NCBI GenBank assembly: GCA_004431415.1
Contig: QPMI01000416.1
Location: forward strand, 62,001-126,000
From: Cyanophora paradoxa CCMP329
Lineage: Eukaryota > Plantae > Glaucophyta
Direction of reading: 5' to 3'
DNA length: 64,000 nucleotides
Below, piece after piece: positions 4,192-31,022 of this stretch. The position numbers and the translations under genes are program-made. Below the pieces are notes generated by a model, which saw only the letters and a program-made list of their open reading frames with translations, did no database searches and had not been told where the DNA came from. Numbering within the stretch: position 1 is the first letter of the stretch; every line of letters starts with the position of its first letter.

Positions 4192-4209
4192 AATAATCTT
4201 ATATTACAA

Positions 4210-4762
4210 ATGAGTATCACGAATCTCCCCTTTATCACTCGGGAAACCTTGTATTTGGATGACGGTTTCGAGCTCAGCAGTAACATTACCGCTTCCAATG
4301 TGACCATATCTTCAAACCTTGTGGTAAAAGACTTTCTATTAAACCAGAGCAACCTTGAATATATCGATATCACCAGCAATCTCCCTTTTACCTATGGCAC
4401 TGATAACTCAGCCCTCGTTATCTATCATGGGGGCGCACCTGTTGCATTCTTTGGCAGCAATTTCCCCACTGTGCGAACCTTCCAGCACGAAATCAATAAA
4501 GCCCGCCCCATCCCACTGACAGCTGTCGTCGAATGGGATCCTGTTAAATATTCGCAGAGCATCACAAGCAATATCACCCTCACTCGACCGCATTTAATTG
4601 ATGTCATGGGGGTCGACCTTGTAAAGGAGTTTTATAGTGAGCGATTCACAAGAAACGAGCGAGATGTAGCCCAGGATCTCGAAATCTCGGGTTTATCAAT
4701 TGCTACCGCAGCAAACACGGCAGGGCTCGCTGTTTTAACAGGGGCTATCACCATCACTGATG
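4210..4762 (+). pseudogene. 5' part of a fibre-like virion gene split by the inner element (continues at 31023)
   Basis: SN-rich beta repeats; frame ...AITITD joins AIMYLSRDLVPLLD at 31023 once the element and one TSD copy are removed. Confidence 0.85.
4757..4762 (+). repeat. Left target-site duplication CTGATG
   Basis: Identical CTGATG at 31017-31022, directly outside the right TIR. Confidence 0.95.
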
Positions 4763-4935
4763 ACACATAGGGATACCCCTGATCCAAGCCCTCCGGCCTT
4801 CGGCCTACAGGCTTGGATCAGGGGTATCCCTATGTGTGCGCGTTTCAGGTACTAGGGTAGTAATCATTTATTTCAGGTCTTAGGGTATTAATCATGTCTT
4901 TTTGGCACCAGTATGTTGGCCGCCTCTGGGGTATT
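4763..4935 (+). repeat. Left TIR of inner element, with terminal hairpin 4763-4837
   Basis: Reverse complement of 30844-31016 with about 3 mismatches; perfect 28-bp arms at 4763-4790 and 4810-4837. Confidence 0.95.
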
Positions 4936-5046
4936 AGATGTAATGTGTCTCACTGTAATCGAATTTATCTTTACCATGAACTGTCATAGCAGCATCAATA
5001 AACTTTTTTTGTTTTACTATCCATACTCTATATATAACCAATATTC

Positions 5047-5880
5047 TTATGGAGCAGTATCCTGCCCAAAAATGGGGAAATATCGATTTGTCCCATAGTA
5101 TTCAGCATAGGTATTCTGCTTTGCAATAAAATCGGTTCTCTCTGCAAACATCACACACTTGTAGATACCAAACTTGGTGGCTCTCACAAGAAACTGATAG
5201 TCTTCCAAACCGAAATTGACTCCATGATAAGCAATTCCGAAATTATCATATGGGGTGATCACAACTGCAAAGTTGGGAGTTCCACCTTCAACTTGGCAAA
5301 CAGCATATACATCTGGTGGGATATCAACAACCACCTTGTAGTGATCACCAATCTCAACAAGAGAGTCAACTACTGCTGTTTGTTCATTTACAACAATGGG
5401 GAATATTTTGATTATATAGGGGGCATTCATGCTGGGGACATAGGTTCGAATTCTTGTGTTGGGATCAATGGGATTGGGCTGATCATTCACAAATAGAGGC
5501 GCTCCAACAGCCCCACCAACCCTAAGACCATCACCAATATAAGCTCCCCCCGATTTGCAGTTAATAGCTCCCGACCTAGATTCAAAAGAATAAGTAGACA
5601 GAGGATCTCCATAGCTATCTGGGTCTCCATAATGAGCAGAAAAGTTTGCATTTGTGACAAGTAGCTTAGTTGTCTTAACTAAACCATTATTTTTATCACA
5701 CCTGAGTTCCTGTAATCTCAGTTTGTGGGTGGAACCAAAGGTGTTCATTGTAGGTTGGACCTCTGTTGATTGGAGACCCTCTACATCATCAAAGGTAGCA
5801 TGTTGCAGAACATGGTTTGCTGGGGCAGCTAATGATAGCTGTGGTGTAATAATTCGTTCAAGTGGGGGTTGCTCAGCCAT
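5047..5880 (-). CDS. Putative virion accessory/fibre protein (ELR.DK..GLVKTT family)
   Basis: 277 aa; N-terminal module shared with 5904-6797 and 36003-37014. Confidence 0.6.
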   Translation of the reverse strand: MAEQPPLERIITPQLSLAAPANHVLQHATFDDVEGLQSTEVQPTMNTFGSTHKLRLQELRCDKNNGLVKTTKLLVTNANFSAHYGDPDSYGDPLSTYSFESRSGAINCKSGGAYIGDGLRVGGAVGAPLFVNDQPNPIDPNTRIRTYVPSMNAPYIIKIFPIVVNEQTAVVDSLVEIGDHYKVVVDIPPDVYAVCQVEGGTPNFAVVITPYDNFGIAYHGVNFGLEDYQFLVRATKFGIYKCVMFAERTDFIAKQNTYAEYYGTNRYFPIFGQDTAP

Positions 5881-5903
5881 TTTACATTAAAGGGATATAT
5901 CTT

Positions 5904-6797
5904 TTATGGGGTTGGGTCATCAATTACATCTAATTCTTGGTAAAATCCTGTTGTGAATATATCAGCAACATTTACCCCACGAAGTGCTGATACAGCTGCT
6001 ATATCTGTTCTCAGTCCCATAATCATAGTATTGTATACTCCAACCTCAGTGACAAACAGATCATAGGTAAATGTCAAATTGTTATAAACACAATATCCTC
6101 TGCCAAAATGGTTCGAAGCTTGAACAAAGAATAAGTAGTTGTGTCCTGGTTGATTATTATTGGCTCTACACATGGAAAGCATTGCAGTGGGAAGAGGAAT
6201 ATTTCTTCTTACTCGATCAGTTCCTGTAATGGAAACTAATTCCGAATTCTCAAGAGTTACAGAGGATGCAACATAGAAATGCAAAAAAGGTTGCTGTGCA
6301 ACAGGTGTGTAGAAACGAATTCGTTGGGGGTCATCCACATTCTGTTCAAGAGTATCTGGGACATCATTATACGAAATTGAGGATGAAAGCTGACCTGAAA
6401 CTCTGCAACCTCCACCAATAAAAGCTCCTCCTGATCTCACAGTAACAGCAGCAGAATTCTTATCGAAATCAAGGGCTTTCAGATCAACACTGTAAGCATC
6501 AGGACCTCCATTTGTCGGTTGAAAGAAGTTTGCATTTGTTACAAGTAGTCGTGTGGTTTTAACTACACCCGAATTCTTATCGGCTCGGAGTTCTTTTACA
6601 CGAATCATCGAATTTTTATCGAAAGAGTTACCATTAGAATTGGGTCTCTCTGTGGATTCTAAACCACGAACCTCATCATTAACTTCATGCTGGCGAAAGT
6701 GCATAGCAGGGGATCCAAGGGAATATATTGGAAGTTGAACTCGATTATATTCACCCATTGCTTCTTTTACTAAGAAGGAAAGAAAAATAAACACCAT
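5904..6797 (-). CDS. Putative virion accessory/fibre protein, tandem paralogue (likely start 6758)
   Basis: ELRADKNSGVVKTTRLLVTNANF and SGGAFIGGG shared with its neighbour. Confidence 0.6.
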   Translation of the reverse strand: MVFIFLSFLVKEAMGEYNRVQLPIYSLGSPAMHFRQHEVNDEVRGLESTERPNSNGNSFDKNSMIRVKELRADKNSGVVKTTRLLVTNANFFQPTNGGPDAYSVDLKALDFDKNSAAVTVRSGGAFIGGGCRVSGQLSSSISYNDVPDTLEQNVDDPQRIRFYTPVAQQPFLHFYVASSVTLENSELVSITGTDRVRRNIPLPTAMLSMCRANNNQPGHNYLFFVQASNHFGRGYCVYNNLTFTYDLFVTEVGVYNTMIMGLRTDIAAVSALRGVNVADIFTTGFYQELDVIDDPTP

Positions 6798-7106
6798 TCA
6801 AGCCAAAGCAATTAGATTGGATCCAAGAGATTGGTAAGCGGTTGTTAGACATTGGAGGTTTGATGTCATCGCTTTAAGGTTAGAATCACATTCGCCATAA
6901 CGTGTTACGGGATCACCATAAGCCGATTGCGCAAGGACATTAACCAAAAGGTTTTTATATTCATGAACAACCGGTGACAGTTTGTTGGTTTGCTGTATCG
7001 TTTTTTCGACAGTTTGTAGTGCGGCTACAAGTTTGATAGTATCAAAAGCAAGAGCGACAGGCTCAGAAGAAGTAGAAGGAGTTCCACCGAGTGGATAGGT
7101 CGCCAT
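6798..7106 (-). CDS. Hypothetical protein
   Basis: 102-aa ORF packed tightly between co-oriented genes. Confidence 0.55.
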   Translation of the reverse strand: MATYPLGGTPSTSSEPVALAFDTIKLVAALQTVEKTIQQTNKLSPVVHEYKNLLVNVLAQSAYGDPVTRYGECDSNLKAMTSNLQCLTTAYQSLGSNLIALA

Positions 7107-7109
7107 TTA

Positions 7110-10100
7110 TTATACTGTGACATTTTTAATTTGGTCTATTTGACTTTGGAGATTTTCACATGTTTGTGTTAAATCTTTGCATTTCTTAGATAACTCTTTA
7201 ACGGCTTCTATGAGAACTGGAATTAAACCCGTGTATTCGAGAGAAAGGTAACCATCGTCTTTTTTAACATTAACTACCTCTGGTATTACCTTTTGAACAT
7301 CTTGTGCAATTAAACCTAATCTTGTTCCGTCTTTTTCACTTCCAATTCGTTTAAAACTTACTCCTTCTAATTTTTCAATCGCTGAAAGAGCGCCGGTTAT
7401 CTTTTTAATATCTGTTTTATATCTTATGTCACTTCCTTGTGTTAAATACCCTCCTATCCACATCCAACCACCATGATACATGTAACAAATATCAGTATCT
7501 TGCTCATTTCGGAATACAAGGGGAATATCTCCCCTTCCTTTCAAATATGTAGAAGTATTATTACCGAAATGGATACGATTGTATCCATCACTGGAATTAA
7601 ACCAAGTCCCCACATCTCCTGTTAAGATATTTGGTTTGCTATAAACGTTATTCCAATGAATATAGCCGGTGTGACCACCATAACTATTTCCTACCCATAT
7701 TTTCATGTAACTTATACCCATAATGTGAACTCTTCCGATCTTTGGTCTAATTCGAATTGTGAGAAATCGATTACCAAGATGTATCGGAACATTATTTACA
7801 CCACTGTGGTTACCATCAGGCGATGTGGCGTATGGTTGATAACTATTCACTGATGTAATAAAAACTTCATTCCCTTGTCTATTAACTCCCCAAATTTCAA
7901 AAAGTCGTGAGCTTACCCAAGGTAAATAGGTTAAAAATGCTGTTCCTGTGTGATATCCTTCTGGAATATCGAAGTCTATCCAAGCGGTAGAAGTTTGATC
8001 ATCCGTTTGATTATTATGAACATATGAACCATAATTATAATGTGGATCCCATGCTGCACTCCACGCCCATGTCCAATCGCCATAAGAACATCTATTAAAT
8101 TCAATACCTCCTTTTGTTTTATCTGCTGTGTGAAACTTTGGAACAGCATTACCATTTATTTGAAGATCTGTTGTAGCATTAATAGTGGGTGCTGTAATAG
8201 TGTTTTTCACCCAAAAGTTACCATTGTTATAAGACTTTAATATTGCTCCATCTGCTGAGTCTCTGAATTCAATTGAAACACCACCACTATTTCCATAACC
8301 TCGAATATATGTGCAATCACCATTTCCAAACCAAATTCGCGGAACAGTGTCGGTTGATTTTAACCATGTATTTGTTGGCCATGTCGCTGTTTGTGGAAGG
8401 TCTGCGGCTGTTATTAAAGCGGGACGACTATAAATATTATCCCAACTTATCAAACCATTCGCTGGTGCTGTTCTCCCTACTTCTTTTGTCCATCCAAGCA
8501 TTCCAATGTGAATTCGTCCTTTTTTTGCGAAAATTCCAATATGTGAGAAATTCCCACAAAATACGGATGTCCATAATAAACTCGAATGCCAAGCTGTGTC
8601 GGCTGTGTTTTGAACATTTTGATACGTATTAACTCTCATAATATAATTCCATCGACCATTGCGATATCCGTAAATATCGAAATATCGCCCATTCGTCCAA
8701 CATAAATATTGAATGTGACATGTTTTCATTCCTGCTGGAACCACACACTGCATGTAGCCACTGCCACTTTCATCATCTGTTTGGTTGCAATAAAAACCCT
8801 CTACTGGGTTATCTGTTGTGGGTTTCCATGCTGTTGTCCAATTTCCCACAAAATCAACACCTGTGCTATTCCAACCACTCACCACATCAAAATCGGAATA
8901 TTTGCCGACAGGATTAAAAGCGATATTATCATAATGAATTAATCCAACATCATTATCGGTTGCTCTTTGTCTACTCCAACCAAATACACCCGTAAAATAA
9001 ATGCGACCTTTCACACCTTTTACCACAATCTTTTTATAGAAATCACAGTTTATAGAAGTATAGATAATAGCGTTATAGGTTCCATCTTGAATTCCACTAT
9101 CTTGTATTGCTTGATAGTGATTAACACGTTTTAGGAAATGCTGATGTCCATTAACAGTTTCACCGTAAATGTCGAAATATCTACAATTATGCCAATTCAA
9201 AAGTTGAATATAAAACGATTTCATACCCTCTGGTATTGCCCAACGCATCCAACAACCCGTAACATCTGCATCATTCTCAGGTGTGGTGTAACATCCTGTT
9301 TGTCCTGTTCTATGTCCTGTCCAATTGACAGTCCAATTATTCGCGCTTCTATCTGTCGAAACCACATCTAATTGGTCGAAATCGTAACCTTTTGGTATTG
9401 TGGTTCCGCCAATTTGTAAAGTGGTAGCATTCACAGTTCCTGTTACAGTTCCACCTGTTAGAGGTAGATAATTAGCAAGTGCCGCCGTTAAATCGGTATC
9501 TGTAACAAAATCTGTAACAGCTAATTGTAATTCTGTATTTGTAACATAATCTTTGTTTTCTAAATAATCATCTGTAACAACACCGGAAAGGGTTGTATTG
9601 TGTAAGTTTTTCGCCGCCATTCTCTGATTGACTTCTAAGGCGCCACCTGTTGTCGTTTTGATCCACGCCATCTCACACTTTCCGTGATCATCTGTGGGTT
9701 GTCCTGCAACAGGAAGATAGTTTACAACTTTCTCCCTTGTGAATACTATCTTAGGTCTTGCTCCATCATATGCGCTTTGATCTGTTACGTTAATTTGAAT
9801 AGCTGCTGAAAAATCCGCTACTTGTCCTGTTTCACCCGGGTGATAATTCGTGACATAGATACTGGGGAAAGTATCATTAATTCCTACATTAAAATCGCCA
9901 CTATACACTCCATTTACGATTGGATCCCTGGGTAATCTTACTGCAAGAGTTCCCACCATCGGTGTGCCTGTTTCACCTGTAAATGAACCATTGAGACTAA
10001 CATAATGATCATTCAAAAATAGCCTTTCAGGTGTATTAATTGATTGGTAAAGTGTGACTCCATTAAAAACGTTTCCGATTGCATTCAATTGGGCAAAAAC

Positions 10101-13100
10101 TGGCTGTTCGTCTATTTCGCTCCATGGGTGCCTGTGGTTGCTATTTGTAATCTCTGAATAATCATGAGTGTGTGGATCGGGTGGGAAGGTTAACGGAGGA
10201 TTTGTGATATGCTCCCATAAATGAGTATGGGCGAAATCTGTGATTTGCGATTTTGTGTGAGTATGGTCAAAATCTGTGATTTGCGATTTTGTGTGAGTAT
10301 GGTCAAAATCTGTAATATCTGCTTTTGTGTGTTTTTGTTTTGCTAACCAATCTAAAACAACATTCGATGTTGGATGATGTGGTAGAGTTGCATTTTTGGT
10401 AACTGTGAGATTTTCAATAAATATATTGCTCGAATTAATTTTAAGATCTTCATTATTCAATATGGGCTGCGTATTTGGAAATCCATACAATAATTGTATA
10501 TAATATCTAACCGCGTTCTTTTCTTCAATAGATAACGCACGATTGAAAACGATAATTTCGGCAAGATCTCCATTAGCAACAGAAGAACCAAATGATGCAA
10601 AATCAGAAGGTGGAAGAAAATCACCCGATGATGTTCCAATATCAATACCACCCATTCCTACGACAATTTGCTCTGAGGAAACAGTGAAATCCCAATAATT
10701 CCACGAATTATATATATATGATGCATCGAATAATGGAGGAGTTGCATTTTCTACATCGTTTTGAATTTGAAGTGAAACCCCAAACTTTTGATTTTTACAA
10801 CCATATCCAATCCAATTTTGATAAGAACTATCCCTTATATTCAACATATAAGAAGGATTTGTTGTATTGATCCTACCTATAAAGAATACTGTAAGACCTG
10901 ATGACCAATCTATTGAAACACTACTCTTATAAGCCAAGTTCAATTCTTTCCCAATCGAAATTTGATTGTTCAGGGTTGCATTCAAATAATAATAAACACT
11001 TTCCCACTTCGAATTATTTGTAATGTATGGTATCTGTGTAGTAACTCTGTTATATAACTGACCTTCGAAATATATCAACTCACCATGTTGACCTGATGCT
11101 TTCCATGCAAATATACAATTTGGAATAATTGGGGCTGGATCAATGACAGTAGTAACAGCATAGTAAGGTCTATAAAGTATTTGTATAGTATTTTGTGTTC
11201 CAATTGTTATATTTCGATACACTGTAAGATTACTTGTGTAAATATCATCTGCCCATAGGTTACTTGCCCATAGGTTACTTGTCCAAATGTTACTTGCTGA
11301 AATGTTACTGGTGTAAATGTTACTTGTGACTGTAAGGTTTGTATCATTTTTAATCACGAATAAAGAAAGAATATTCGTTAGTTCTCCTTCGTCAATATAT
11401 CCTTGATCTTCTAAATAATCTTCTGTTACCACTCTCGATATATTTTCGTTGTGAATGTTTTTTGCAGCCATTCTTTGATTGGCTTCCAGAACCCCACCAT
11501 AATCTGTTTTAATCCATGCAAGCTCTGCCCTCCCATAGTTATCATTTGCAGTTCCCACTATGGGAATGTAGGAGTATTTATCTCGACTGAAAACTATCAT
11601 TGGTCTTGATCCATCCAGACTGCTCACATCTGCAACATGAACCTGTATAGCAGAGTTGTAATTTTGGTAGGTTGCTGGGTCTGTTGGGACTCTGAATGTA
11701 TCTGTGGGAATGTCAGCCTCCATGTAGCTTGACACAAAGATATTTGGTATGGTTGCTCCTGGTTCAGGTGGGTTTTCAAAAGAGCCTGGTAATGTCCGAA
11801 TATGAAGTGGTCCTCTCATGGCTGAATTTGCAAGTGACCCATCCACATTGACATAGTGTTCATTCAAAAAGATCCTTTCAGGGACATTGCATGTCTGGTA
11901 AAGAGAAACTCCCATTAGAGGTTCAACTTTTGAAAATTCTGGTTGGTCATTAATCTCATCCCAAGTGTGTTCATGTTTGCTTGGTGGAAATTCTTCTGGT
12001 ATTCCATCAATATCACCCCAATCATGCCTGTGATCCTCTGGTGGATACTTTTGAGGTTTGCCTAAGATCTCATCCCAATCATGATTGTGATCCTCTGGGG
12101 GATACTTTGCAGGTTTATTATTAATTTGTTCATAATCAGGAAAGAACTCCCAGATCTCAGGTCGAAATCCATCTGGTAGTAATTCCTCATGGGGTTCATA
12201 AGGTTGCTCATAATCAACAGCTGGTGGATCATGCCCATCTGGCAAATACTCCTCATCAGGTTCATAGTTCTGCTCATACTCAAACTCTTGTGGATCTAAG
12301 CCATCTGGTAGTATCTCCTCCTCATTGGGGTCAAATTGATCATACTCATACTCTTGTGGGTCAAAACCATCTGGTAAATACTCTTCCTCATCTGGAACGA
12401 ATTGATATTCTTCAAGCTCTAATATATCGATTTCAGGAGGTAAATACTGCTCATCTATTTGCTTTCTTGGTTCAATTATAGGTTTATTGCGAACTTGCTC
12501 CCAACTTACAATATGCTGCCCAAAGGCTACATCTTCAGTTGCTGTGTATTCTCTTCCAGGTTGCTTCTTTGGTGTTAAATCGGGTGGTCCATTGGGAAAT
12601 GGAATAGGGAATGGGACTGTTGGTCCATTGGGACCATAATGCTCAATTATTTCCCTTAGAGTTTTCTCACTTACAAGCTTCTCACCATTTGCATACACAT
12701 TGCTGCCATGGATATTTCGCCATTGCCTGGTTCGAATTCCAAGGTCTTTCACATTGCTATACAAAGGCAAAAGGTGCCTATCCATTTCGACTAAATCAGG
12801 ATGTAAATGGATTGCTACTGGCTGACTGGGGCTACTGTTGATTGTAATTGATGGCTTTTTTTGATGGACATCTTTTGGAGTAAAGAACCCAAAAGGCTCA
12901 TTCCTTGCAAAGTCATATGTAATATCCTTGGGGTAGACATCATTAGTTGAACAGACTTGATTCGTGTTCTGGAAATGGCCCACTTGTAATACTTGGGGAA
13001 CCTCTGTTTTTGTGGTGCTGCCCTCATTATAAATTCTTAAACCCGTGTTCTGTTTGCCCTGCTCATCTTGTACATTGAAAATCAAACGGCCACTATCACA

Positions 13101-13412
13101 CCTTGATGGTATGTCTGGGTGAGTGCCACTGGTTTTTAGTTTCCTAGGTCTCCTTCTTGTTGCTTTGATCTCTGCTACTTGGTTGGCTTTCACATTACCC
13201 AAACTAAAAGCAACACTGACATCTTCTTTATTTGGATCAGTTTGATTCACAGATAAAGCATGCTCCCTTGATTGAGTCTTTGAAGAACCGTCAGAGCTGT
13301 GGTCGATTGATATTGAACCTTTAACTTTTATATTATCAAAGTTCACATGCTTTGTGCTGCTGGAATTATCATCTTGAATTGTTTCCAGATTAGGGGGGTA
13401 ATTAAAGCTCAT
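7110..13412 (-). CDS. Giant modular fibre/spike protein with C-terminal peptidase S74 intramolecular chaperone
   Basis: 2100 aa; SDIRYKTDI...GLIAQDVQKVIPEVV...EYTGLIPVLIEAVKEL; HxH tail-fibre repeats; LamG-like GDLAEIIVFNRAL; several internal duplications. Confidence 0.85.
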   Translation of the reverse strand: MSFNYPPNLETIQDDNSSSTKHVNFDNIKVKGSISIDHSSDGSSKTQSREHALSVNQTDPNKEDVSVAFSLGNVKANQVAEIKATRRRPRKLKTSGTHPDIPSRCDSGRLIFNVQDEQGKQNTGLRIYNEGSTTKTEVPQVLQVGHFQNTNQVCSTNDVYPKDITYDFARNEPFGFFTPKDVHQKKPSITINSSPSQPVAIHLHPDLVEMDRHLLPLYSNVKDLGIRTRQWRNIHGSNVYANGEKLVSEKTLREIIEHYGPNGPTVPFPIPFPNGPPDLTPKKQPGREYTATEDVAFGQHIVSWEQVRNKPIIEPRKQIDEQYLPPEIDILELEEYQFVPDEEEYLPDGFDPQEYEYDQFDPNEEEILPDGLDPQEFEYEQNYEPDEEYLPDGHDPPAVDYEQPYEPHEELLPDGFRPEIWEFFPDYEQINNKPAKYPPEDHNHDWDEILGKPQKYPPEDHRHDWGDIDGIPEEFPPSKHEHTWDEINDQPEFSKVEPLMGVSLYQTCNVPERIFLNEHYVNVDGSLANSAMRGPLHIRTLPGSFENPPEPGATIPNIFVSSYMEADIPTDTFRVPTDPATYQNYNSAIQVHVADVSSLDGSRPMIVFSRDKYSYIPIVGTANDNYGRAELAWIKTDYGGVLEANQRMAAKNIHNENISRVVTEDYLEDQGYIDEGELTNILSLFVIKNDTNLTVTSNIYTSNISASNIWTSNLWASNLWADDIYTSNLTVYRNITIGTQNTIQILYRPYYAVTTVIDPAPIIPNCIFAWKASGQHGELIYFEGQLYNRVTTQIPYITNNSKWESVYYYLNATLNNQISIGKELNLAYKSSVSIDWSSGLTVFFIGRINTTNPSYMLNIRDSSYQNWIGYGCKNQKFGVSLQIQNDVENATPPLFDASYIYNSWNYWDFTVSSEQIVVGMGGIDIGTSSGDFLPPSDFASFGSSVANGDLAEIIVFNRALSIEEKNAVRYYIQLLYGFPNTQPILNNEDLKINSSNIFIENLTVTKNATLPHHPTSNVVLDWLAKQKHTKADITDFDHTHTKSQITDFDHTHTKSQITDFAHTHLWEHITNPPLTFPPDPHTHDYSEITNSNHRHPWSEIDEQPVFAQLNAIGNVFNGVTLYQSINTPERLFLNDHYVSLNGSFTGETGTPMVGTLAVRLPRDPIVNGVYSGDFNVGINDTFPSIYVTNYHPGETGQVADFSAAIQINVTDQSAYDGARPKIVFTREKVVNYLPVAGQPTDDHGKCEMAWIKTTTGGALEVNQRMAAKNLHNTTLSGVVTDDYLENKDYVTNTELQLAVTDFVTDTDLTAALANYLPLTGGTVTGTVNATTLQIGGTTIPKGYDFDQLDVVSTDRSANNWTVNWTGHRTGQTGCYTTPENDADVTGCWMRWAIPEGMKSFYIQLLNWHNCRYFDIYGETVNGHQHFLKRVNHYQAIQDSGIQDGTYNAIIYTSINCDFYKKIVVKGVKGRIYFTGVFGWSRQRATDNDVGLIHYDNIAFNPVGKYSDFDVVSGWNSTGVDFVGNWTTAWKPTTDNPVEGFYCNQTDDESGSGYMQCVVPAGMKTCHIQYLCWTNGRYFDIYGYRNGRWNYIMRVNTYQNVQNTADTAWHSSLLWTSVFCGNFSHIGIFAKKGRIHIGMLGWTKEVGRTAPANGLISWDNIYSRPALITAADLPQTATWPTNTWLKSTDTVPRIWFGNGDCTYIRGYGNSGGVSIEFRDSADGAILKSYNNGNFWVKNTITAPTINATTDLQINGNAVPKFHTADKTKGGIEFNRCSYGDWTWAWSAAWDPHYNYGSYVHNNQTDDQTSTAWIDFDIPEGYHTGTAFLTYLPWVSSRLFEIWGVNRQGNEVFITSVNSYQPYATSPDGNHSGVNNVPIHLGNRFLTIRIRPKIGRVHIMGISYMKIWVGNSYGGHTGYIHWNNVYSKPNILTGDVGTWFNSSDGYNRIHFGNNTSTYLKGRGDIPLVFRNEQDTDICYMYHGGWMWIGGYLTQGSDIRYKTDIKKITGALSAIEKLEGVSFKRIGSEKDGTRLGLIAQDVQKVIPEVVNVKKDDGYLSLEYTGLIPVLIEAVKELSKKCKDLTQTCENLQSQIDQIKNVTV

Positions 13413-13455
13413 GGCTTTTACTATATGGATTTATAAAATTCCTTATAAGTATTAG

Positions 13456-20252: not shown

Positions 20253-20277
20253 GTTATTTTGTCTCGTTAATAGTAAG

Positions 20278-20484
20278 ATGTGGCAATGGCTCCAACAATT
20301 GCTGGATATGTTTCATATACATGTGACCAGCAATTATAAATGTAGCTGTTGCGATACTACTATTGACGTCAGCATTGGATCTTCCTCCCCAAGTGGATCC
20401 AGGAGGAACTCTTTGGATGTGGTGATGGCAGGGCTGGCTCGCATGAGGGGCAAAGGGAAAGTTTGGAGCCTATTGGAGAGGTGA
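20278..20484 (+). CDS. Small hypothetical protein (CSCC motif)
   Basis: ATG after an AT-rich spacer; amphipathic N-terminus. Confidence 0.35.
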   Translation: MWQWLQQLLDMFHIHVTSNYKCSCCDTTIDVSIGSSSPSGSRRNSLDVVMAGLARMRGKGKVWSLLER

Positions 20485-20674
20485 ATGGCGCGGAATTGGT
20501 TGAGGCTGTAAATAACGCATTGGATGAGTACCAAGGGCAGCTACATGTTCAGGTTAGGCCTTCAACACCTGAAAGGGGAACGTTTACGCATATGGGGATC
20601 ACTATAGGAGGCTCAAGACGCTTTCAGCGACGCGGTGATCAGGGCATACCATTTAAGGGAGCAGGTTGAACACA

Positions 20675-20911
20675 TCACTGGCCATCAGGGAAGGTATTAA
20701 TCTCGTTTCCAAGCATGAGAAGGTCGTTTGATATTTTTTGTAAGGCTGCTTTAATGTGTGGAGACAAAGGAGCTATGCGGTGTCCAAGGTTGTACAGTTC
20801 TATAGAGAGGCGATGTATGGAGTTACTCAGTTCTGAGCTTGGAGACGTCAGCGCCAAATATGAGAGTTCAAAGGACACCTCTACAAGGCGAGTATGGATG
20901 GGAGTTGTCAT
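20675..20911 (-). CDS. Small hypothetical helical protein
   Basis: 78-aa ORF with an AT-rich leader. Confidence 0.35.
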   Translation of the reverse strand: MTTPIHTRLVEVSFELSYLALTSPSSELSNSIHRLSIELYNLGHRIAPLSPHIKAALQKISNDLLMLGNEINTFPDGQ

Positions 20912-21247
20912 AATAATCTACTTTTAGGCAGCATAAAAATGCGAAAGGGGCGGCTCTGCGTAGAGCTTGATGAGAGCTTCACAGGAAAAAAAAGAGCGCT
21001 CAAAACGGCCAATCTGGTGCCGAGATATTCGCGTTTGAAGTTCCTTAAGTGGCTCTAATTGAAAGTTTTAGAAACATTCTTATAGAGCTCTATAAGGAAA
21101 AAGCCGCCTACTGCTGTACGGTAGGCATGCGGGCTCTACCGGTAGGACAGTAGGCAGGGCCCTACTGTCCTACCGCCGGCGGCCTGTGCCTACCGGTCTG
21201 CGGTAGACACGCGGGCTCGCCTACCACTGCGGTAGGCTGGCTCATAT

Positions 21248-21895
21248 ATATGTATATGATATATATGAAAAAAAACAAGTTTTGGTAAAAACCACAGCGC
21301 CGTGATCGCCATGACGCGGCGAGTCCGAAAAGCTATGATATATATATATATGTCATGTGACATCATAATATATCATATACATATATCATTATGGTATATA
21401 CAAGTCGCTCAAATTGAAGTCTTATAAGGTCTTATAAGAGTTGTTATATAGAATTCTTTTCTAAAATCTTATATGGTCTTATAAGATTTAATGTGCGTAC
21501 TTTAGCTGGTACGCAGGCCAGTGTGCGTACCGTAGCGCAGTACGCAAGCCACTGTGCGTACCGTAGCGCAGTACGCAAGCCAGTGTGCGTACCGTAGCGC
21601 AGTACGCAGGCCACTTTGCGTACCGTAGCGCAGTACGCAGGCCACTTTGCGTACCGTAGCGCAGTACGCAAGCCACTGTGCGTACCGTAGCGCAGTACGC
21701 AGGCCCCTGTGCGTACCGTGGCTCAGTACGCGCGAACGTACATATGTATATGATATATATGAAAAAAAAACAAGTTTTGGTAAAAACTATAGCGCCGTGA
21801 TCGCCATGACGCGGCGATTCCGGAAAGCTATGTTATATATATATGTCATGTGACATCATAATATATCATATACATATATCATTATGGTATATACA
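21248..21895. repeat. Two ~150-bp direct repeats (21248-21402, 21742-21895), each an imperfect palindrome
   Basis: TGTATATGATATATATGA...AAACAAGTTTTGGTAAAAAC...TCATAATATATCATATACA occurs twice. Confidence 0.9.
21492..21732. repeat. Tandem array of a 31-bp palindromic unit (about 7 copies plus 1 degenerate)
   Basis: TGTGCGTACCGTAGCGCAGTACGCA(A/G)GCCAC, with TGCGTAC/GTACGCA inverted inside each unit; no spacers. Confidence 0.95.
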
Positions 21896-22070
21896 TTTGG
21901 TATATGCGAAACTGAAAATATTCGTAGCTCGTCACCAGATCATCGTAAGGCTATGATGTTGGGGTCTATAAATATCTACTTTTTACGAGAATCCAACGGT
22001 GATAGCGGCAAGGAGTGAATCGGTGATGGTGAAAAGGTTGTCTCTGGATGTTTCAATCTGCTTCTCAATT

Positions 22071-22331
22071 TCAATTTGTTCCAAGAGCTGCCCTCTTTTT
22101 TATTTCGAGCAGCTTTTTCATGATATATTTGTCATCTTCTTCCAAGAGAGGATGTTTTTCCTGTGCTGCTCTTGGTCTGTTTTCCAGATCTTCTTTAAGC
22201 TCATGGAGTGTGTGGAGTAAAAATCTCTTTCTTTTGTCATTCTCATCCATCTCATTCACAATTCGCTCTGTCTCTCCATAGCGTTTCTGTAACTTCATTT
22301 CCTGCCTTTTATTACAGCTGTCCATTGACAT
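22071..22331 (-). CDS. Small coiled-coil hypothetical protein
   Basis: 86-aa charged ORF preceded by TTAAAG boxes. Confidence 0.45.
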   Translation of the reverse strand: MSMDSCNKRQEMKLQKRYGETERIVNEMDENDKRKRFLLHTLHELKEDLENRPRAAQEKHPLLEEDDKYIMKKLLEIKKRAALGTN

Positions 22332-22379
22332 CTTGATTCCCTTTAAACAATTATGGTGTTCTATTCTTTAAGTGGTGGG

Positions 22380-22560
22380 AGGGTGAATGGGGTGAATGGC
22401 AGGGTGAATGGGGTGAATGGCAGGGTGAATGGGGTGAACGGGTTATGTGTAAACTTTCTTAGGAAAACCCCCTCTCATGGGGATTTATACATATAACCCG
22501 TTCACCCCGTTCACCCCGTTCACCCCGTTCACCCCGTTCACCCCATTCACCCCATTCATC
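22380..22560. promoter_or_regulatory. Putative origin: inverted arrays of 9-bp GGGGTGAA(C/T) iterons around a ~55-bp spacer
   Basis: Directly downstream of the primase-helicase stop; inverted second copy at 30660-30822. Confidence 0.6.
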
Positions 22561-22621
22561 CACTTAACCACTCTTTCTTAAAAACATAAAATGCTTTTCT
22601 CAGAATATTTACTACTTTCAA

Positions 22622-25083
22622 TCAATCACTGTCACTTTCAATCCCCATCTTTGCCTTGATTCCAACATAATGCCAGAGCCTTACTTTCCCAATCTGTTTC
22701 TTAGGAATCCCATTGATCACAGTCATAGCTGTTCCAAAGGCTGTTTGGCTCATTTCTTTATCCACTCTGGAATACTCTTTGAATAGATCAGCTGCTTTGA
22801 TGACGTCACTGCTGCTGTGGGTGATTTCAAAGTTTGCCTGAAGCCATGTCAGCACTGGGTTGTTTTCAGTGATATATTCCTTGCTGGCCTCTTTGACAGA
22901 TTCAGGCACTGGGATGAAGCCCATGGCGCCCACCTCAGTGGTGTATGTGTCAATGAGCAGCCTCATGAAAGCCTGAGCATATCTCTCATCATCTCTAATT
23001 CTGCCCATCAGGCTGGGGTCTGCCTTCTTTTGGCCTTGAATGGGATTCTCTTTGAACTGGTATTCAAAATGGGACACATGGAGGCGCCTTTGGATGCCTC
23101 CATCCAACTTGGAGAGCTTTGGAATATCATTTGTCAGCAGGAAGGGAATGAATTGAGGAGTGAATGTGATGGGGTTAGCATGTAATAAACGAGCAACAAG
23201 TTTCTCACCTCCAGTGATCTCCTTGATTTTGCCCACCTGAAGCTTGTCACTGGCTTCAGGCTCATTGGAGAAGATGATCCTCACACCCTTTTTGTCAGCC
23301 AGCTCAGGCACAGGGGCGCCAGACCTTGGTTTCCCACTGACCCAGTAGGAGCTGTCAAGGGGATGGGCATAATCACCCAGAGCCTTGAGAACCAACTCTT
23401 GGAGTGTAGATTTGCCATTGGAGCCAGTGCCTGTCCAGATGTGGAAGCGCTGGTCTTTGTTGCCCTTCCCAGAGAGGGCACCTGCCAATGTCCTCACAAG
23501 GAATTTGCCAGTCTCTTGATCTTTGAATGGCTCATATACAATTTTCTTGATTTCTTCCATGACATTCCCATCAATCATAGGGGCATATGGATAGCCACAA
23601 GTCCTACTGACATACTCATCAGCTTTGGCTGGGCGAAAGACCTTATTTTGAAGGTCATAGACTCCATTGGTAAACCCAATCAGCTCCTTAGATTCATCCA
23701 TACTGGCAGCTATTTCAGTGTCAGCAAAGAGAGCCTTTGCTTCCTTGATGATGGAATCTTTGAAACCACACTTAAGGAGCTGCTTGGAAATTTCAAGGCA
23801 TTTCTTGGCATTCTCCTCATACTTTGAGCTTTCATCTGGATCAGCAGCAGCTGAACGAGTGTTTTCCATTGCCTCCTTCATAAAAAGCTTCATGACATCA
23901 GTGGAAAGCACTTTGCGCAGTGTATGGGGTTCCTTTTCAGCTCTCCACAGTCCAGTGAGCTTATTCCTGACATACCAGATGTCTTTTTGATTGGCATCAT
24001 AGCGGAATTGGTCTTTTTGTGTGTGGTACAGGACTTCAGCCACATTGTAATGACCCCCATTTGAAGCAATGGCATTTTAATGGCCTGCTTGAGGTCTCCC
24101 TTATTGGTAAACAGCTGAATATATAGATCCAGATTATCAGCTTTGAGCCAATAGACAAGAGAAGCATATGCCAATGGCTTTACTGAGCTACCTTTTTGGA
24201 AGCTCTGCCAAGCCTTGTCACACGCCTCAGCCCTATACTTGCTGCTCTGTTGGCTGAATTTGTGCCAGATGGCCAGTACTTTGTCTTCAGGCATTTTCTT
24301 GTCTTTCATAGTGCTTGTCAGGGCCAAGCCAACATTAATCCAGTCAGCATAGCCATCAGCTCGTTTTTCACTGAGTCCCATCACAAGCTTTTCCAGCTCA
24401 TCACTGGTGATGATTTCGCTGGAATACTCATTATTTTTGGGCAGCTCCTGGGCAGGCTCCTCCTTCTCTGGAAGAGTGAGCAGGGCCTCCTTGCCAGTGA
24501 GAAGCTGGACAAAGAAATCAGTGTCCTCATGGGATGTTAGCTTGGTGAACACAGTGTCCCAGCAAGGTTCCTCATAGGTGCTGCTCTTGTCAGCAAGAGC
24601 CTTCTCTTTACAGCAACCAAGGCACACAAGCGCCCTGTTGTTGTTGTAAACAGATGGATCATAGTCCTCATGAGGCTTGAGCCCAGCCCCCTCAAGGAAA
24701 ACAGGGAAATCCCTGTAGATGCCATGAAGGGTGGTACATACCATGTGGGCACTCACTTTGTAGCATGGATCCTGTGTGTCTTTTTTGATCAGCAGCCTTG
24801 ATCTGGTGGAGATGGCAATGGTGCTGATGTGGACACCAAGTGCCTTGGCCAGCTTTTCAGCCTTGGAATTGATAAGCTCAAGTCCCTCATCATCAACCTC
24901 ATCAACAGGCAGAACCTGTTCGAAATCAATGTAGAGCTTGGTGAATTTATGGCCACTCAAGTACTCAGCCATGTGCCTGTTGCCTGAAGCAATCCTCTGG
25001 AGTGCCTCAGTGACCCTGATAGTCACAGTGCTGGCTTCGCGACTGCCAATGATGCTTGTTAGGAAGGTGCCAGTGGATGTCAT
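22622..25083 (-). pseudogene. AEP primase-PriCT-2-D5/SF3 helicase, one frameshift near 24050
   Basis: KLYIDFE, SAH, DPSVY (AEP); YADWINVGLAL..WHKFSQQSSKY (PriCT-2); LIGFTNGVYDL, GTGSNGKS, NEPE, KEITGGE (D5 helicase). Confidence 0.9.
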
Positions 25084-25187
25084 TCTACTATAGGATGAGA
25101 AAATAATTTGATGATTCTATAAACACCCTTGTCCTTAAGTAGTTTATAGAATCATTAAATAAAACAATCAATTTTTCGCGACCCCCC

Positions 25188-25379
25188 TCAATACACCACT
25201 GTCCTTGGTCTGCCAACAAGGCACCTCCTTTCATCAAAGAGGTACCTCACACAGGGAAGGGGGTCACCCTTGTAGTATCTGCTCCTTAGACTATTAAGCT
25301 TCATTCTCTCACGGAAAGCAGGATCTTGAGCACGGCGACGAGTCACATAGGCAATTTGAGATGCCGCATGGTATGCCAT
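25188..25379 (-). CDS. Small basic putative DNA-binding protein
   Basis: DPAFRERMKLNSLRSRYY...VGRPRT; resembles 20022-20252. Confidence 0.5.
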   Translation of the reverse strand: MAYHAASQIAYVTRRRAQDPAFRERMKLNSLRSRYYKGDPLPCVRYLFDERRCLVGRPRTVVY

Positions 25380-25434
25380 TTTAGTTCTTGTTCCTCTACA
25401 CTATAGGTAAGATTTTATTCTTTAAATGCTGATT

Positions 25435-26005
25435 CTATTCGGTATTTTGTGCCTCGGGCTTAATCTCATTGAGAGCGGCAAAGTCTCCATAGTGTTCAAT
25501 TGCCGCCTGATTGTAGGCATGAGCGGCTAAGGCTTCATTTTTGTAATACCCAAAGAGAGCCTTTTGTCATTAATTGTAATCTGAGCACACCATTTACCCT
25601 CTCGTTTCTTGAAAGAAACACCTTTATATTGACTGCTTGTATTGCTGCTTTTACTCCTATTCCTATTATTCTCAAAAGGATAGCATACCCTCAGATTACA
25701 CTTCCTGTTGTCCAATTTATCTCTGCTCACATGGTCGACAACCAACCCTTCTTCAGTTCATTTGTCATTATCAATCGATGAGCATACAATACCAACCATT
25801 TCCCTTCATCTCGCTTTACACTTGTCTTAGCATAACCATCCCCATCCAAACACCAGTTATATCTCATCATTGTAGGAGCATCTTCGATATCACATATCAT
25901 ATACTGGCCCCTTCCTTTGGCCCCTCCAAGTGGAACGTAGAAATATTTCATGGAGTCCACGTCGTCAAACTTGGTTTCAACAAAATCCTGATCAAAGGTT
26001 TCCAT
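25435..26005 (-). pseudogene. HNH endonuclease with AP2 domain, two frameshifts
   Basis: YFYVPLGG, AHRLI, VVDHVSRDKLDNRKCNLR, SQYKGVS, AAHAYNQAAIEHYGDFA; homologous to 33774-34484. Confidence 0.85.
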
Positions 26006-26100
26006 TTTTCGTCTACAATAGACACACAAAATAATCTTCCAAATTCTACGCGGCATTTAAAGATTATTTTCGTACCTATATATAAGTACAACCCCCAACC

Positions 26101-29100
26101 ATGCCCCGCCCCAGCCACTACCAAATTAAGGAGCTTCAGGACAAGATTCTTGGGAATCTGGCGTTCCTACTGGCCAACCACTCGATCAGTGAAAGTGAAT
26201 ATGAATCATACATAGGGCAAACCAACAAAAAGCTCAAAGGATTACAAGCACTCAATCGAGAACTATTAGGGAAAATCGACGCCCTTGATGAGACTGATCG
26301 CCTTGGCCAAATCCAAGTCGAACAGACCACCACAACTCAAGTCAGAGGAGATGAATACACAGCTCTAATTAATGAGCATCGCGCTCTAAATAATAAATAC
26401 ATTGATTTCACAATCAGAGCTCAGCACCAGATCCTGACCACCCAAGAATTTATTGACACCTACTCTGAGGAACTCCACACAAGGCTCCAAGATGCCATCA
26501 ATTCCCAGATGTCGATTAAAACTCGCTTTACATTTGTCTGTCGCTTTTCAAAAGCAAACAATTCGAGAGATTTTATTACCAAGCACATTTACAGCACCTA
26601 TGCTATCATGACAAGATCTCGAATCCTCACAAAAGAGACAGCTAAACTTGCCAAGGAATGCCAGTCGCAAATTAATGTCACAGATAGCTACAGATTAGAT
26701 AGCATCCAAGCCCTCAGGGTCATTGTTCTCTCCTTTAAGCCAATCTCAGGAGGTGCTTTTATCCCACTCCCAGAGTGGCTCAAAAATAAACGAGCCATTG
26801 TCAATGTCAACAACAAGGACAATAGATGCTTTGAGTATGCTATCCTTTCTTATATTCACAAGGACGAAGTAAATAGCCACAAGCGTAATGAGACTTCCCA
26901 ATATAGGAGGTGGTTCAAAAAAGAACTAAATTTCGAGGGCATTGACTTTCCTGTAAAGGCAGATGCTGATACTATCGATCTCTTCGAAAATCTCAATCCA
27001 GCAATCTCTGTTAATATTTACGACCCCTCTAACTCTACAGAAGAAATTAATCTACTCCACAACAGCTCCTCAAGGAACAGGAAACACCAAGTGGATCTGC
27101 TGCTAATTACAGACGCAAATGGTAACAGTCATTATACCACAATATTCAGCATGTCCAGACTCTTAGCTAAGAATGATAAGCAGCGACTCCATTTCTGTAA
27201 AACCTGTTCCAACCACTTCAAGACTGAGGAGAAGCTTCAATCCCACAATCAAAGCAAACGTTGTGTGGATTGGAAGACAAGTGCTGGAGAGACTCCAAAA
27301 CAACCCACATTCATTGAATTTGGTCTTAAACATCTCTCAAAGACTGTATTCCTCCCAGTGATTGCCTATTGCTATTTCGATTTTGAAACAGATCAAGAAG
27401 GTATGTTCAAGATCAAATCAATCTCACTGACAGCTCTTCATAATAATAGAGTAGTACTCACTAAAACCCACTCCAGCATCTACGAGCTTTTATCTACACT
27501 CGACAAAGCAGCCCCAGAGCTATTTAAAGCCCTATTTACCAACGTCCCAATGTCACTGACCAAAGAGCAGAAACGTACCCATTACCTTGCTAAAACCTGC
27601 TACATCTGTGAGGGTACGTTTTCCCAAGACAATTATAAAGTCCGCGATCATGACCATCAAACAGGCGATTTTGTAGGCTCAGCCTGTCGCAAATGTAATC
27701 TTCACAGACGCACCAGCAATCTCACCAAGATTCCCATAGTGACCAATGATCTGTCCCTATCTGGAACGCAGATATTCAAGGCAGTCGCCTTAAATCCCGA
27801 AAAAAGGGTGGAAGTCCTCGCGAAATCGTTTGACAACTACATGTCGATCACATGGGGGTGCTTTAAGTTCATTGACATCAAAAACTTTATTGATTATGGT
27901 GTCCAGAACGTGGAAGGATTAATGGAAAAGTTCCAGCTATTTCGCCAGAAATCCCACAAGACCTATGGAATGGATGCTGCCCACTATGTCTCAAGTCCTG
28001 GCCTTTCGTGGGACAGCATGCTATCGATCACCAAGCCCAAAATCGAACTCCTCTCCAACCTTGATATGTACAACATGATTGAAGGCATGATCAGGGGAGG
28101 CCTTTCGATTATGAATCATAAATATGCCAGAGCTGAAAATGACAGCCACATTATCTATTTGGACGCCAATAACCTATATGGATATGCCCTGTCCCAAAAG
28201 CTACCCCTGTCTAATTTCCAATGGCACCCAGAACCCTCAAATTACGACCTGTCATCAGCAGGTGGTGCTGTACTGGAGGTGGACATTCATTATCCCCAGC
28301 ACCTCCATGAACTCCACAAAGAACTGCCTCTTGTCATCAGGAGAACAGAAGATGGGCTACAAGCAGCCTGCCAAGACATTTCCAACTACGTAATATCAAA
28401 ACCATTGCTCCAATTCATGGTAGCACAAGGCTTAAAGGTCACCAAAATCCACAGGGTGCTGACATTTACTCAGGCTGCTTTCATGAAGCCCTACGTCAAA
28501 TCTAATGCCCAAAACCGCAGAGAAGCCGCCTCCAAACCCGAAAAGGACTTCTTTAAAATCATGAACAACAGCCTTTTCGGCAAAACCATTGAGAAAGTGA
28601 GGGAAGGTCGAATGTCAAGATTGCCACCAACGAAAAGCAATTTATGAAATATGCCAGATCCCCACTTCTCAAAGCCGAAACCAGGCTTAGTGATTCAGCA
28701 GTAGCCTTCGAAATGCTACAGAAAGACGTCAAGCTGGACAAGCCCATAGCAATTGGGGCAGTTGTTTTAGATCTTGCCAAGCTACGCCTATTTGATTATT
28801 ATTATAGCACCATCAAGCGCAAGTGGCCAGACTGTAAGCTACTATTTACTGATACGGATTCTTTCTGCCTTTCAATAAATTCCACAACCATCCAACAGGA
28901 TCTACAAGACATTGACACACACCCCACAGAGCTTGGGAAGTTCAAAAATGAGTTTGAGGGCAGAACCATTACAGAATATGCTGGTGTGAGGCCGAAATGC
29001 TACAGCATTAAAACAGATGATGAGGAAATCAAAAAGCTGGCTGGTGTTTGTAAGGAGACCATTCAAACAGATCTGTCTTTCCAAGATTATAAAGACCATG

Positions 29101-29195
29101 TGCTCCACCAAAAACCCAAGCAAATCGAAATGACTGTCCAAAAGAAGCTTGAAAATGAGACCTTCAATGTGAAGATGTCAAAGATTGCTTTCTAA
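26101..29195 (+). pseudogene. polB: Protein-primed family B DNA polymerase (Polinton type), frameshift near 28610
   Basis: YLDANNLYG, KIMNNSLFGKT, LLFTDTDS; Endo VII-like CYIC..DHDH..ACRKCN insert; DNRCF...SHY vOTU-like region. Confidence 0.92.
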
Positions 29196-29206
29196 TCTCA
29201 ATATAG

Positions 29207-30577
29207 ATGTCATCAAAGATCGTACGCAGACAAACAGAATATGATGTGAGTGTACTCCCTATCCCAATCCCTCAAGAAGAGAGAGGGGGGCGCATACAGA
29301 AAAAGAGTGACCTCAAAGCATTAGTTCCAGCAGACATCCCAACAGCAATTGCTGTGCCCCACTTGGATCCCTTAGCAAGGACATTCTATGACACCAAGGT
29401 AGGATTTAAAGGCCTTGCTTCATTGGCCAAAGAGCTTCCAGATGTGCCAAGAAAGACAATCCGTAGATTCTATGATGCCCAAGAAATCAACCAAATAAAT
29501 AAACCCCTCCCATCAGCCAAGAAGACTGCCTATATCCCCATAAGACAGCCACTCGATACATTCGCTATTGATTTAGTCTTCTTTCCCTCATACAGCAAAC
29601 AGAATCAAGGCTACAACACGTTCCTCACAGCTGTAGAAAACACCACCAGACTGGGCTTTATTATTCCAATGAGGGGAAAGACAGCAGAAAGCACATTGAA
29701 CGCATTTAAGGAGCTTGAGCAACAAGTCCCTCGTCCAATTGTGAAGATACAAAGTGATGCTGGGAGCGAATTCCTGAACAAGGTATTTAAAGACCATTTA
29801 GAAACCCAGATGATTGAGCACCAAGTTTCGCAGGTTGGAGATCACAATAGCCAAGGCCGAATAGAGGCCTTTAATCGCACAATAAAGAAGCTAATTAACT
29901 CGTATTGTATAGCGAATAATACTGTAAAGTTTTTCGACAAGCTCCAAGATTTTGCCTACAACTACAATAATACCATCCACTCAGCAACAGGGATGAAACC
30001 AGCAGAGACCACAGAGGTACATGTTCCCCTCATACTCGCAAAAGAAAACGAGAAATTCATGAAGTCAATTGAATATCTAAAGGACTATCCAGCGGGAACC
30101 CACGTGAGAACTAAAATAGAGAAGGGTCCATTCGCCAAGCAGGGCAATAATTGGAGCCGCGAAATATTTACAATAGAAGGAGTGGAGGGGTTCAAGTTTA
30201 GATTGAGGGACATTGCCGGAAAAATGATTGATCGACTTTATGCCCACTACGAATTACAGAAAGTGGAAGCCGTGGAGTTTCTGGAAGCCCCATCAATAAA
30301 TGTCATTGAAGAGGCAAAGAAAGAGGCCAGAACAGAGCGACTGTTGGCCAGAGAGGGGATTGAGAGGGCTCCAAATGTGCCAGATAAACCATTATTGGAG
30401 GACAGAGCAGGGAAGAAGAAGAAACAGGGGAGAGAGTTGGAGAGATTGAGGGTGGCGGGAACAGAGAGATTAGCAGGGGGAGCAGAGGCAGTAAGGTGGT
30501 ATAGAGATTTCTCGAATTCAAAGGAGACCTATGAAGCTCCAGCAATTTCCACGAGATCAAGGAGGAGGGCAGGATGA
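29207..30577 (+). CDS. Retroviral-type (rve, DDE) integrase of Polinton type
   Basis: AIDLVF, QSDAGSEF, RIEAFNRTIK, YNNTIHSATGMKP, NWSREIFTI; consistent with a 6-bp TSD. Confidence 0.95.
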   Translation: MSSKIVRRQTEYDVSVLPIPIPQEERGGRIQKKSDLKALVPADIPTAIAVPHLDPLARTFYDTKVGFKGLASLAKELPDVPRKTIRRFYDAQEINQINKPLPSAKKTAYIPIRQPLDTFAIDLVFFPSYSKQNQGYNTFLTAVENTTRLGFIIPMRGKTAESTLNAFKELEQQVPRPIVKIQSDAGSEFLNKVFKDHLETQMIEHQVSQVGDHNSQGRIEAFNRTIKKLINSYCIANNTVKFFDKLQDFAYNYNNTIHSATGMKPAETTEVHVPLILAKENEKFMKSIEYLKDYPAGTHVRTKIEKGPFAKQGNNWSREIFTIEGVEGFKFRLRDIAGKMIDRLYAHYELQKVEAVEFLEAPSINVIEEAKKEARTERLLAREGIERAPNVPDKPLLEDRAGKKKKQGRELERLRVAGTERLAGGAEAVRWYRDFSNSKETYEAPAISTRSRRRAG

Positions 30578-30596
30578 GACATCTGTAAAGGTTGTT

Positions 30597-30822
30597 AAGG
30601 ATTGTTAAGATTGTTAAGATTGTAAAGGGTGTAAAGGGTGTAAAGGGTGTAAAGGGTGTAAGGGTGAACGGGGTGAACTGGGTGAACGGGGTGAACGGGG
30701 TGAACTGGGTGAACGGGGTGAACGGGGTGAACGGGGTGAACGGGTTGTTTGTATAAATTCCCGTGAGAAGGCATTTTTCCTAAGAAAATATACAAACAAC
30801 CCGTTCACCCCATTCACCCTGC
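30597..30822. repeat. Graded 9-bp tandem repeats plus inverted copy of the 22380-22560 iteron cassette
   Basis: AGATTGTTA > AGGGTGTAA > GGGGTGAAC units, then spacer and GTTCACCCC. Confidence 0.9.
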
Positions 30823-30843
30823 TGATGCCAAACTCATGTGTTC

Positions 30844-31016
30844 AATACCCCAGAGGGGGCCAACATACTGGTGCCCAAAAGACATGATTAATACCCTAAG
30901 ACCTGAAATAAATGCTTACTACCCTAGTACCTGAAACGCGCACACATAGGGATACCCCTGATCCAAGCCTGTAGGCCGAAGGCCGGAGGGCTTGGATCAG
31001 GGGTATCCCTATGTGT
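30844..31016 (-). repeat. Right TIR of inner element, with terminal hairpin 30942-31016
   Basis: Reverse complement of 4763-4935; followed by TSD CTGATG at 31017-31022. Confidence 0.95.
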
Positions 31017-31022
31017 CTGATG

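Follow-up and report, generated by a model that had tools for sequence, protein, structure and literature searches.

A polinton-like element nested within a gene of a related element in Cyanophora paradoxa

A 64,000-nucleotide stretch of the Cyanophora paradoxa CCMP329 genome (contig QPMI01000416.1, positions 62,001 to 126,000; hereafter the window, whose numbering is used throughout) contains two elements of polinton-like virus (PLV) type, one of which very likely lies nested within a gene of the other (Table 1). The outer element is an AT-rich block ending in a hairpin terminus (39697) beside host DNA, which has a GC content of 62% beyond 39698; it is placed with the PLVs by this terminus and by homology of its major capsid protein (MCP) and ATPase to those of the inner element. 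As the initial annotation reported, the two share a block of two head-to-head putative pentons followed by MCP and ATPase, in opposite orientations and clearly diverged: the ATPases are 38% and the MCPs 34% identical, there is no blastn match, and the putative pentons match weakly (E 2e-8 to 2e-3). We take the latter to be putative pentons from their position, their cross-homology and a motif; the model of outer putative penton 2 (pLDDT 30) is uninformative.

Table 1. Features of the nested elements (window coordinates)
Feature	Position	Strand	Remarks
Outer (target) PLV-type element	1..39697		left part and left end precede base 1; 13.4 kb of it in view around the insertion
Outer A32-type packaging ATPase	2..418	-	runs off window; Pox_A32 E 6.6e-5; 38% to inner ATPase
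Outer major capsid protein	422..1870	-	34% to inner MCP, E 5e-77
Outer putative penton 1	1924..3189	-	weak match to inner 15942-16781
Outer putative penton 2	3217..4191	+	head-to-head with penton 1; matches pieces of inner 15092-15933, E 2e-8
Interrupted outer gene, 5' part	4210..4762	+	184 codons; enters TIR, stop at 4768-4770
Left target-site duplication CTGATG	4757..4762		directly outside left TIR
Inner PLV-type element	4763..31016		26,254 bp, 42% GC
Inner left TIR	4763..4935		170/173 identical to right TIR; starts with ACACATAG
Inner fibre, C-terminal Peptidase_S74 chaperone	7110..13412	-	2,100 aa; Pfam E 1e-15; PHROG tail-fibre families to E 1.6e-25
Patatin lipase then F5/8 (discoidin) domain	13456..15010	+	likely one fused gene with two single-base gaps
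Inner putative penton pair	15092..16781		head-to-head; cross-match to outer pair
Inner major capsid protein, double jelly-roll type	17027..18397	+	Foldseek of low-confidence model
Inner A32 packaging ATPase	18451..19233	+	Pox_A32 E 2.6e-13; Walker A/B motifs
Internal hairpin with 9-bp repeat arrays	22420..22569		inverted copy 30672-30822; 88% over 151 nt
PriCT-2 / D5-type SF3 primase-helicase	22622..25083	-	one frame break near 24000
pPolB with EndoVII insert	26101..29195	+	765 homologues with E<=1e-30; frame broken once near 28600
rve integrase	29207..30577	+	D-D-E motif D122, D184, E220; rve match (E 1e-5) under the Pfam cut-off
Inner right TIR with terminal hairpin	30844..31016		173 bp
Right target-site duplication CTGATG	31017..31022		directly outside right TIR
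Interrupted outer gene, 3' part	31023..33745	+	~909 codons; fibre/lectin-like segments, Pro-rich linker, hydrophobic helix aa 988-1006
Outer HNH-AP2 endonuclease	33774..34484	-	profile match
Second outer fibre-like gene	34546..35978	+	phrog_17509 (unknown function) E 7e-15; frame break near 35541
Outer right end	37480..39697		arrays of small hairpin repeats, 296-nt fold-back ending in ACACATAG; GC-rich host DNA beyond

The insertion has the structure described in the initial annotation: both terminal inverted repeats (TIRs) abut CTGATG, and removal of 4763-31022 leaves a single copy of this 6-mer. From local composition the chance of such a match is 2e-4, and a 4-bp duplication is a formally possible alternative reading, but the inner end and with it the 6-bp target-site duplication (TSD) are fixed because the outer element terminates in the same eight bases, ACACATAG. 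Within the inner element a stop codon at 4768-4770 ends the outer frame after 186 aa, and together with the TSD and the TIR ends this bears out the description of a whole PLV lying inside a related one and truncating a viral gene.

The empty site, which the initial annotation had suggested looking for as an empty allele, is present in sibling copies in short-read contigs, which were aligned from four runs to window 1-20000 and from four to 30940-33000. In runs X1, X5 and X8 a contig covering 31017 onward extends leftward into letters matching window 4727-4756 at 28 of 30 positions, both mismatches being synonymous; in X16 the extension is 10 letters long. Sibling copies therefore hold the gene unsplit, with the 6-mer present once, and their occurrence in one and the same organism makes it very likely that the nesting is real. 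A further X5 contig (record 27, depth 407) halts exactly at 4762, with 61 further letters. Twenty of 22 runs carry part of window 1-9500, and 19 of these carry about 0.6 of its words, all from organism A; X21 and X22 hold next to none of these words, which proves nothing. Some runs are perhaps the source of the assembly and so not independent of it, and contigs lose rare variants.

The two flanks join in frame, and as assembled the joined frame is open for 299 codons, to 31369. The single open frame from 4210 to 31369 noted initially thus stands as to the in-frame join and fails as to its end: short-read contigs carry one base more than the window at six downstream places, the stop is very likely an assembly artefact, and the frame runs on to 33745. 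Read with an X at the six read-supported breaks, the gene is open for 1,093 aa, whereas none of 2,000 random placements of the breaks exceeded 424 aa. It is likely that the window lacks single G or C bases through long-read errors, and each of the 11 uncompensated single G/C insertions listed extends a run of G or C already there (12 of 25 single-base differences were examined for 1-20000 and 7 of 7 for 30940-33000, compensating pairs excluded); one further single-base difference gives T at the neighbouring base 31961. Bellas et al. (PMC10120064) describe stops of this artefactual kind in comparable elements. Sibling variants in the 1,093-aa frame fall at third positions in 31 of 42 cases and are synonymous in 29 of 42 (40 of the 44 listed differences plus two from a loose end, with multiply hit codons classed singly). 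The least certain of the six breaks is that at 32868, seen at partial depth in X1, X5 and X8 and, in X16, in a loose end alone; if it is discounted, the protein would be 817 aa long and a 271-aa open reading frame (ORF) at 32930 separate. A fused gene is favoured by the variants past this break, three of five being synonymous when the frame is read through, and by an X1 contig that alters the ATG at 32930.

Judged by its sequence, the product of the interrupted gene is most aptly described as fibre- or lectin-like, with a membrane anchor predicted. The initial designation as a fibre gene holds in so far as the protein has fibre shaft-like motifs, together with an H_lectin match (E 0.004) that lies under the cut-off; it is at odds with the predicted C-terminal anchor, a hydrophobic 19-mer at aa 988-1006 with a mean hydropathy of 2.44, compared with at most 1.41 in 11 other ORFs. 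On this prediction it is not the soluble, anchor-free and often S74-ended type of fibre, and no S74 chaperone was found in the gene; the clear fibre of S74 type belongs to the inner element. Six pieces of it gave no PHROG match, Atlas leads to phage clusters (0.80-0.82) are below the useful range, and the match to the inner fibre is weak (E 0.014-0.055). No longer homologues of the first 183 aa are present among 3,804 candidates, which is weak evidence, and the sole match to 31950-32867, the repeat protein P0002 (about 70 aa at 27%), was rejected as spurious. A weak literature search by title and abstract start found no report of a PLV fibre with a transmembrane segment.

The inner element has a double jelly-roll (DJR)-type MCP (on a low-confidence model), an A32-type ATPase, an integrase, TIRs, a TSD and a size within 14-40 kb, and also carries an HNH-like ORF. 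These features indicate a polinton-like virus type; for virions and infectivity the only support, an indirect one, would be purifying selection on the capsid genes. The MCP has no Pfam or PHROG match; the top named Foldseek matches of its model (pLDDT 47) are DJR MCPs with E to 4e-13 and TM scores of only 0.2-0.3, and in this search with a weak model virophage MCPs rank 12th and lower, after nucleocytovirus-type MCPs. Of 7,999 candidates scored against the MCP, the sole homologue is a protein of EukProt (58%), which makes a protist host likely; viral and metagenome contigs yielded no relatives either by MCP or by the 28-nt TIR pattern. A capsid-maturation cysteine protease had no match in 17 inner ORFs and four further frames, at a low sensitivity (Pfam misses the MCP too). 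Single-base gaps at 15127 and 15669 in the putative pentons are filled by short-read contigs. Sibling contigs skip or repeat segments of 60-1,856 bases within 7400-12400, a modular length variation of the inner fibre in the family. Paralogous genes of 277 and 297 aa (5047-6797) adjoin the left TIR and share their N-terminus with a frame-broken outer gene (35969-37014) that ends in a weak C1q-like domain, and a 31-bp tandem array (21478-21762) lies between duplicated AT-rich blocks (21230-21900).

Each inner terminus consists of a 75-nt perfect fold-back hairpin with a 28-bp stem (4763-4837 and 30942-31016); the left one folds at -37.3 kcal/mol (z -11.9, 0 of 200 shuffles), and z is about -11.5 at both ends. 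The outer end folds back over 296 nt (39402-39697), and ACACATAG with a fold-back hairpin end is common to both families though their capsids are only 34% identical. The internal hairpin and its inverted copy (z -7.6 and -8.2) enclose the primase-helicase, HNH, pPolB and integrase genes, and are possibly origins or the ends of a swappable replication module; their arrays presumably resemble the iteron origins of D5-type helicases. In an alignment, the pPolB retains its polymerase motifs but has lost the aspartate of Exo II and about 120 aa including Exo III, and the proofreading domain is predicted to be dead. The same deletion of about 120 aa is present in P0003 (51% identical), in which pPolB is continuous, and absent from four more distant homologues; compared with homologues, the stretch from motif A to motif B is shortened as well. 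All six aligned rows keep the N-terminal region and an invariant pair of Cys and His, likely the vOTU site, which favours protein priming and argues against pure hairpin priming. No sequence match to pPolB was found in PDB.

Because the TIRs are 98% identical, the TSD is perfect and sibling differences are mostly synonymous, the insertion appears recent. Within ORFs 33 of 38 such differences are synonymous (15 of 15 outer, 18 of 23 inner), a set drawn from the 40 best-supported of 772 differences in window 1-20000, with two non-coding ones left out, that favours common variants and so says more about selection in the families as a whole than about the condition of the nested copy. Both families look recently active. 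We reject a decayed fossil, since the breaks are of homopolymer type and filled in short-read contigs, and the variants are mostly synonymous; read coverage is absent from 20001-30939, where pPolB, primase-helicase and HNH are broken, and from the break at 35541.

We therefore favour, as the probable account, a PLV of about 26 kb that entered a gene of a related PLV, cutting it after 184 of about 1,093 codons, likely recently, by its own rve integrase and likely without preference for viral DNA. The integrase, whose DDE motif is intact, would have made a cut with a 6-bp stagger and linked the element's linear ends to it, with host repair then generating the duplication; rve integrases typically yield 6-bp TSDs, according to the part of PMC12220804 available. 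The inner element may have arrived by superinfection or by re-integration of a reactivated resident copy. A hit on a provirus of a sibling family would be an expected accident given tens of copies, and would survive as it would cost the host little; a provirus as a safe landing site, as proposed in the initial annotation, is plausible. The outer copy would no longer make the full-length protein, which intact siblings could supply in trans, and the composite of at least 39.7 kb would probably be too long to package.

Rough copy numbers, taken as family-contig depth over that of the lowest-depth contigs shared between runs, are 14-36 for the outer and 13-97 for the inner family and similar in three runs. 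Assuming a genome of 100 Mb and copies of 20-30 kb, chance nests are expected at 0.08-0.84 for inner in outer and 0.35-3.6 for any in any; one nested case fits chance because both families have, roughly, tens of copies. Several points weigh against the account we favour. Contig depth is no true copy number and a single-copy baseline is assumed; at the low end of the copy estimates a nest of inner in outer would arise by chance in only 8%; the three target sites seen are too few to exclude targeting; and among the contigs listed no contig or read spans either junction, which is a gap rather than a negative result.

Targeted nesting, in which the inner family would be drawn to the DNA of resident PLVs by chromatin that is AT-rich or open, or by tethering to shared end-binding proteins, we regard as unlikely. 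It is favoured by the composition of the elements (40-46% GC in a 62%-GC host), by the 8-bp terminus common to both families, and by precedent: in the available parts of these reports, 91% of type 1 Ngaro retrotransposons lie inside EMALEs (PMC8547959), and Halocafeteria has 14 nested viral elements against 77 complete ones (bioRxiv 10.64898/2026.07.28.741278). The AT-rich target preference put forward in the initial annotation was nevertheless not borne out, as the target has 45-46% GC, the outer element's own right flank 70%, and another inner-family end, in X5, abuts DNA of 80% GC; two of these three sites contradict such a preference, though three are too few for statistics. For rve-bearing EMALEs, moreover, no sequence specificity of integration was found in what is available on them, and the chance expectation is not small.

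A wider interpretation, speculative and decidedly improbable as a whole, would have two lineages of a hairpin-ended PLV group with shared integrase-recognised ends and a proofreading-dead pPolB primed from the fold-backs, in which the knocked-out protein would be a membrane-anchored lectin-fibre, carried by a particle that contains lipid or else exposed on the host surface, where it would serve as a decoy or exclude superinfection, so that the insertion would disable a rival's surface protein.

The inner element could instead have entered a free, replicating outer genome in a co-infected nucleus, the composite then integrating as one unit. Both elements look equally fresh, with little sign of decay among the listed variants, which speaks for this scenario, but it requires co-replication and integration of a molecule of at least 40 kb, and we give it little credence. 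An assembly chimera of two high-copy repeat families is very improbable: errors are frequent in this part of the assembly, each family has many copies and a bridging contig is missing from those listed, but a mis-join would not give exact TIR ends and a 6-bp duplication that occurs once in the empty site (2e-4), and the elements share no DNA similarity to mis-join on.

The preferred account, insertion by the element's own integrase, is of interest in that the empty site from sibling copies makes the order and mechanism of insertion readable, and with tens of copies per family the genome could test targeted against chance nesting. More unusual than the nesting are the fibre-like protein with its predicted membrane anchor and the pairing of hairpin ends with a pPolB predicted to have a dead exonuclease.

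Several further observations concern the outer element, its host flank and the X20 run. The second outer fibre-like gene has short repeats resembling those in phage proteins, and its fibre label is presumptive, based on motifs. Between 37480 and 39210 there are two hairpin modules spaced at 429 bp and about four spaced at 225-280 bp, each with inverted 8-9-bp repeats. In the host flank, segments at 41523-42831 and 46057-47782 are duplicated about 4.5-5 kb apart at 88-91% identity, and the product of 55050-56204 is a coiled coil that includes a weak RING finger. Contigs of X20 (share 0.21, 31 contigs aligned) cover 1-5900 and 16200-19200, including the genes for the outer MCP and putative pentons as well as part of the inner gene set, and carry an adapter-like stretch that we take to be a cDNA template-switch oligonucleotide, a weak hint of transcription; X20 is not used here as evidence of expression. 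One X20 contig links the inner arm of the terminal hairpin, at 4810, to 250 unrelated coding-like letters, and is either a chimera or a truncated copy.

Compared with known systems, the inner element shares with Polinton/Maverick elements a pPolB together with an rve integrase, TIRs and a 6-bp TSD, and its nearest pPolB homologues (35-43%) carry Endonuclease_7, as does the EndoVII-containing Polinton pPolB. It differs in that no protease was found, the exonuclease is eroded and the primase-helicase is separate. Polinton/Maverick termini are 5'-AG...CT-3', whereas in both families here they are 5'-AC...GT-3' with a hairpin. Mavirus and the EMALEs, in the available parts of PMC8547959 and PMC11161782, are similar in having an rve integrase, an exonuclease-less pPolB with a separate SF3 helicase (exonuclease loss with helicase gain being known from mavirus; PMC11161782) and AT-rich islands in a GC-rich host; they differ from the present case, which has two putative pentons head-to-head and no protease found, and EMALEs are interrupted by Ngaro retrotransposons.

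Surveyed protist PLVs (Bulzu et al. 2025, PMC12220804; Bellas et al. 2023, PMC10120064), so far as these sources were available, resemble the elements here in their size of 14-40 kb, TIRs, rve integrases with 6-bp TSDs and S74-ended fibres, and also in gene content, since an F5/8-patatin fusion is reported chiefly from PLVs of rhizarians and glaucophytes, and a fibre combining a repeat with H_lectin from a PLV of a glaucophyte. In the same portions the nested inserts are retrotransposons, no membrane-anchored fibre-like protein was found, and no mention of 'nested' was found in PMC10120064; retrotransposons nested in PLVs or virophages are likewise described in the available parts of PMC12220804, PMC12747079 and PMC8547959. 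Nesting of PLVs and virophages, and palindromic termini, are already reported in Halocafeteria: in the accessible part of the report on Halocafeteria seosinensis (bioRxiv 10.64898/2026.07.28.741278) five PLVs and nine virophages lie inside other viral elements, with TIR palindromes beside the TSD, rve integrases and, in some elements, pPolB with a D5 primase-helicase. There the palindromes occur preferentially with non-pPolB replication genes, whereas the hairpin-ended element here has pPolB, and in that part we found no empty-site or gene-disruption analysis of its virus-in-virus cases. Polisuviruses, in the part of bioRxiv 10.64898/2026.10.13.758929 available, have non-TIR repeats that bracket replication genes, as do 22420-22569 and 30672-30822 here, with the difference that at this locus primase-helicase, pPolB and integrase all lie within a single inverted pair. 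Tandem integration has been proposed there as a route of module exchange, and the nesting at this locus juxtaposes two capsid and replication modules.

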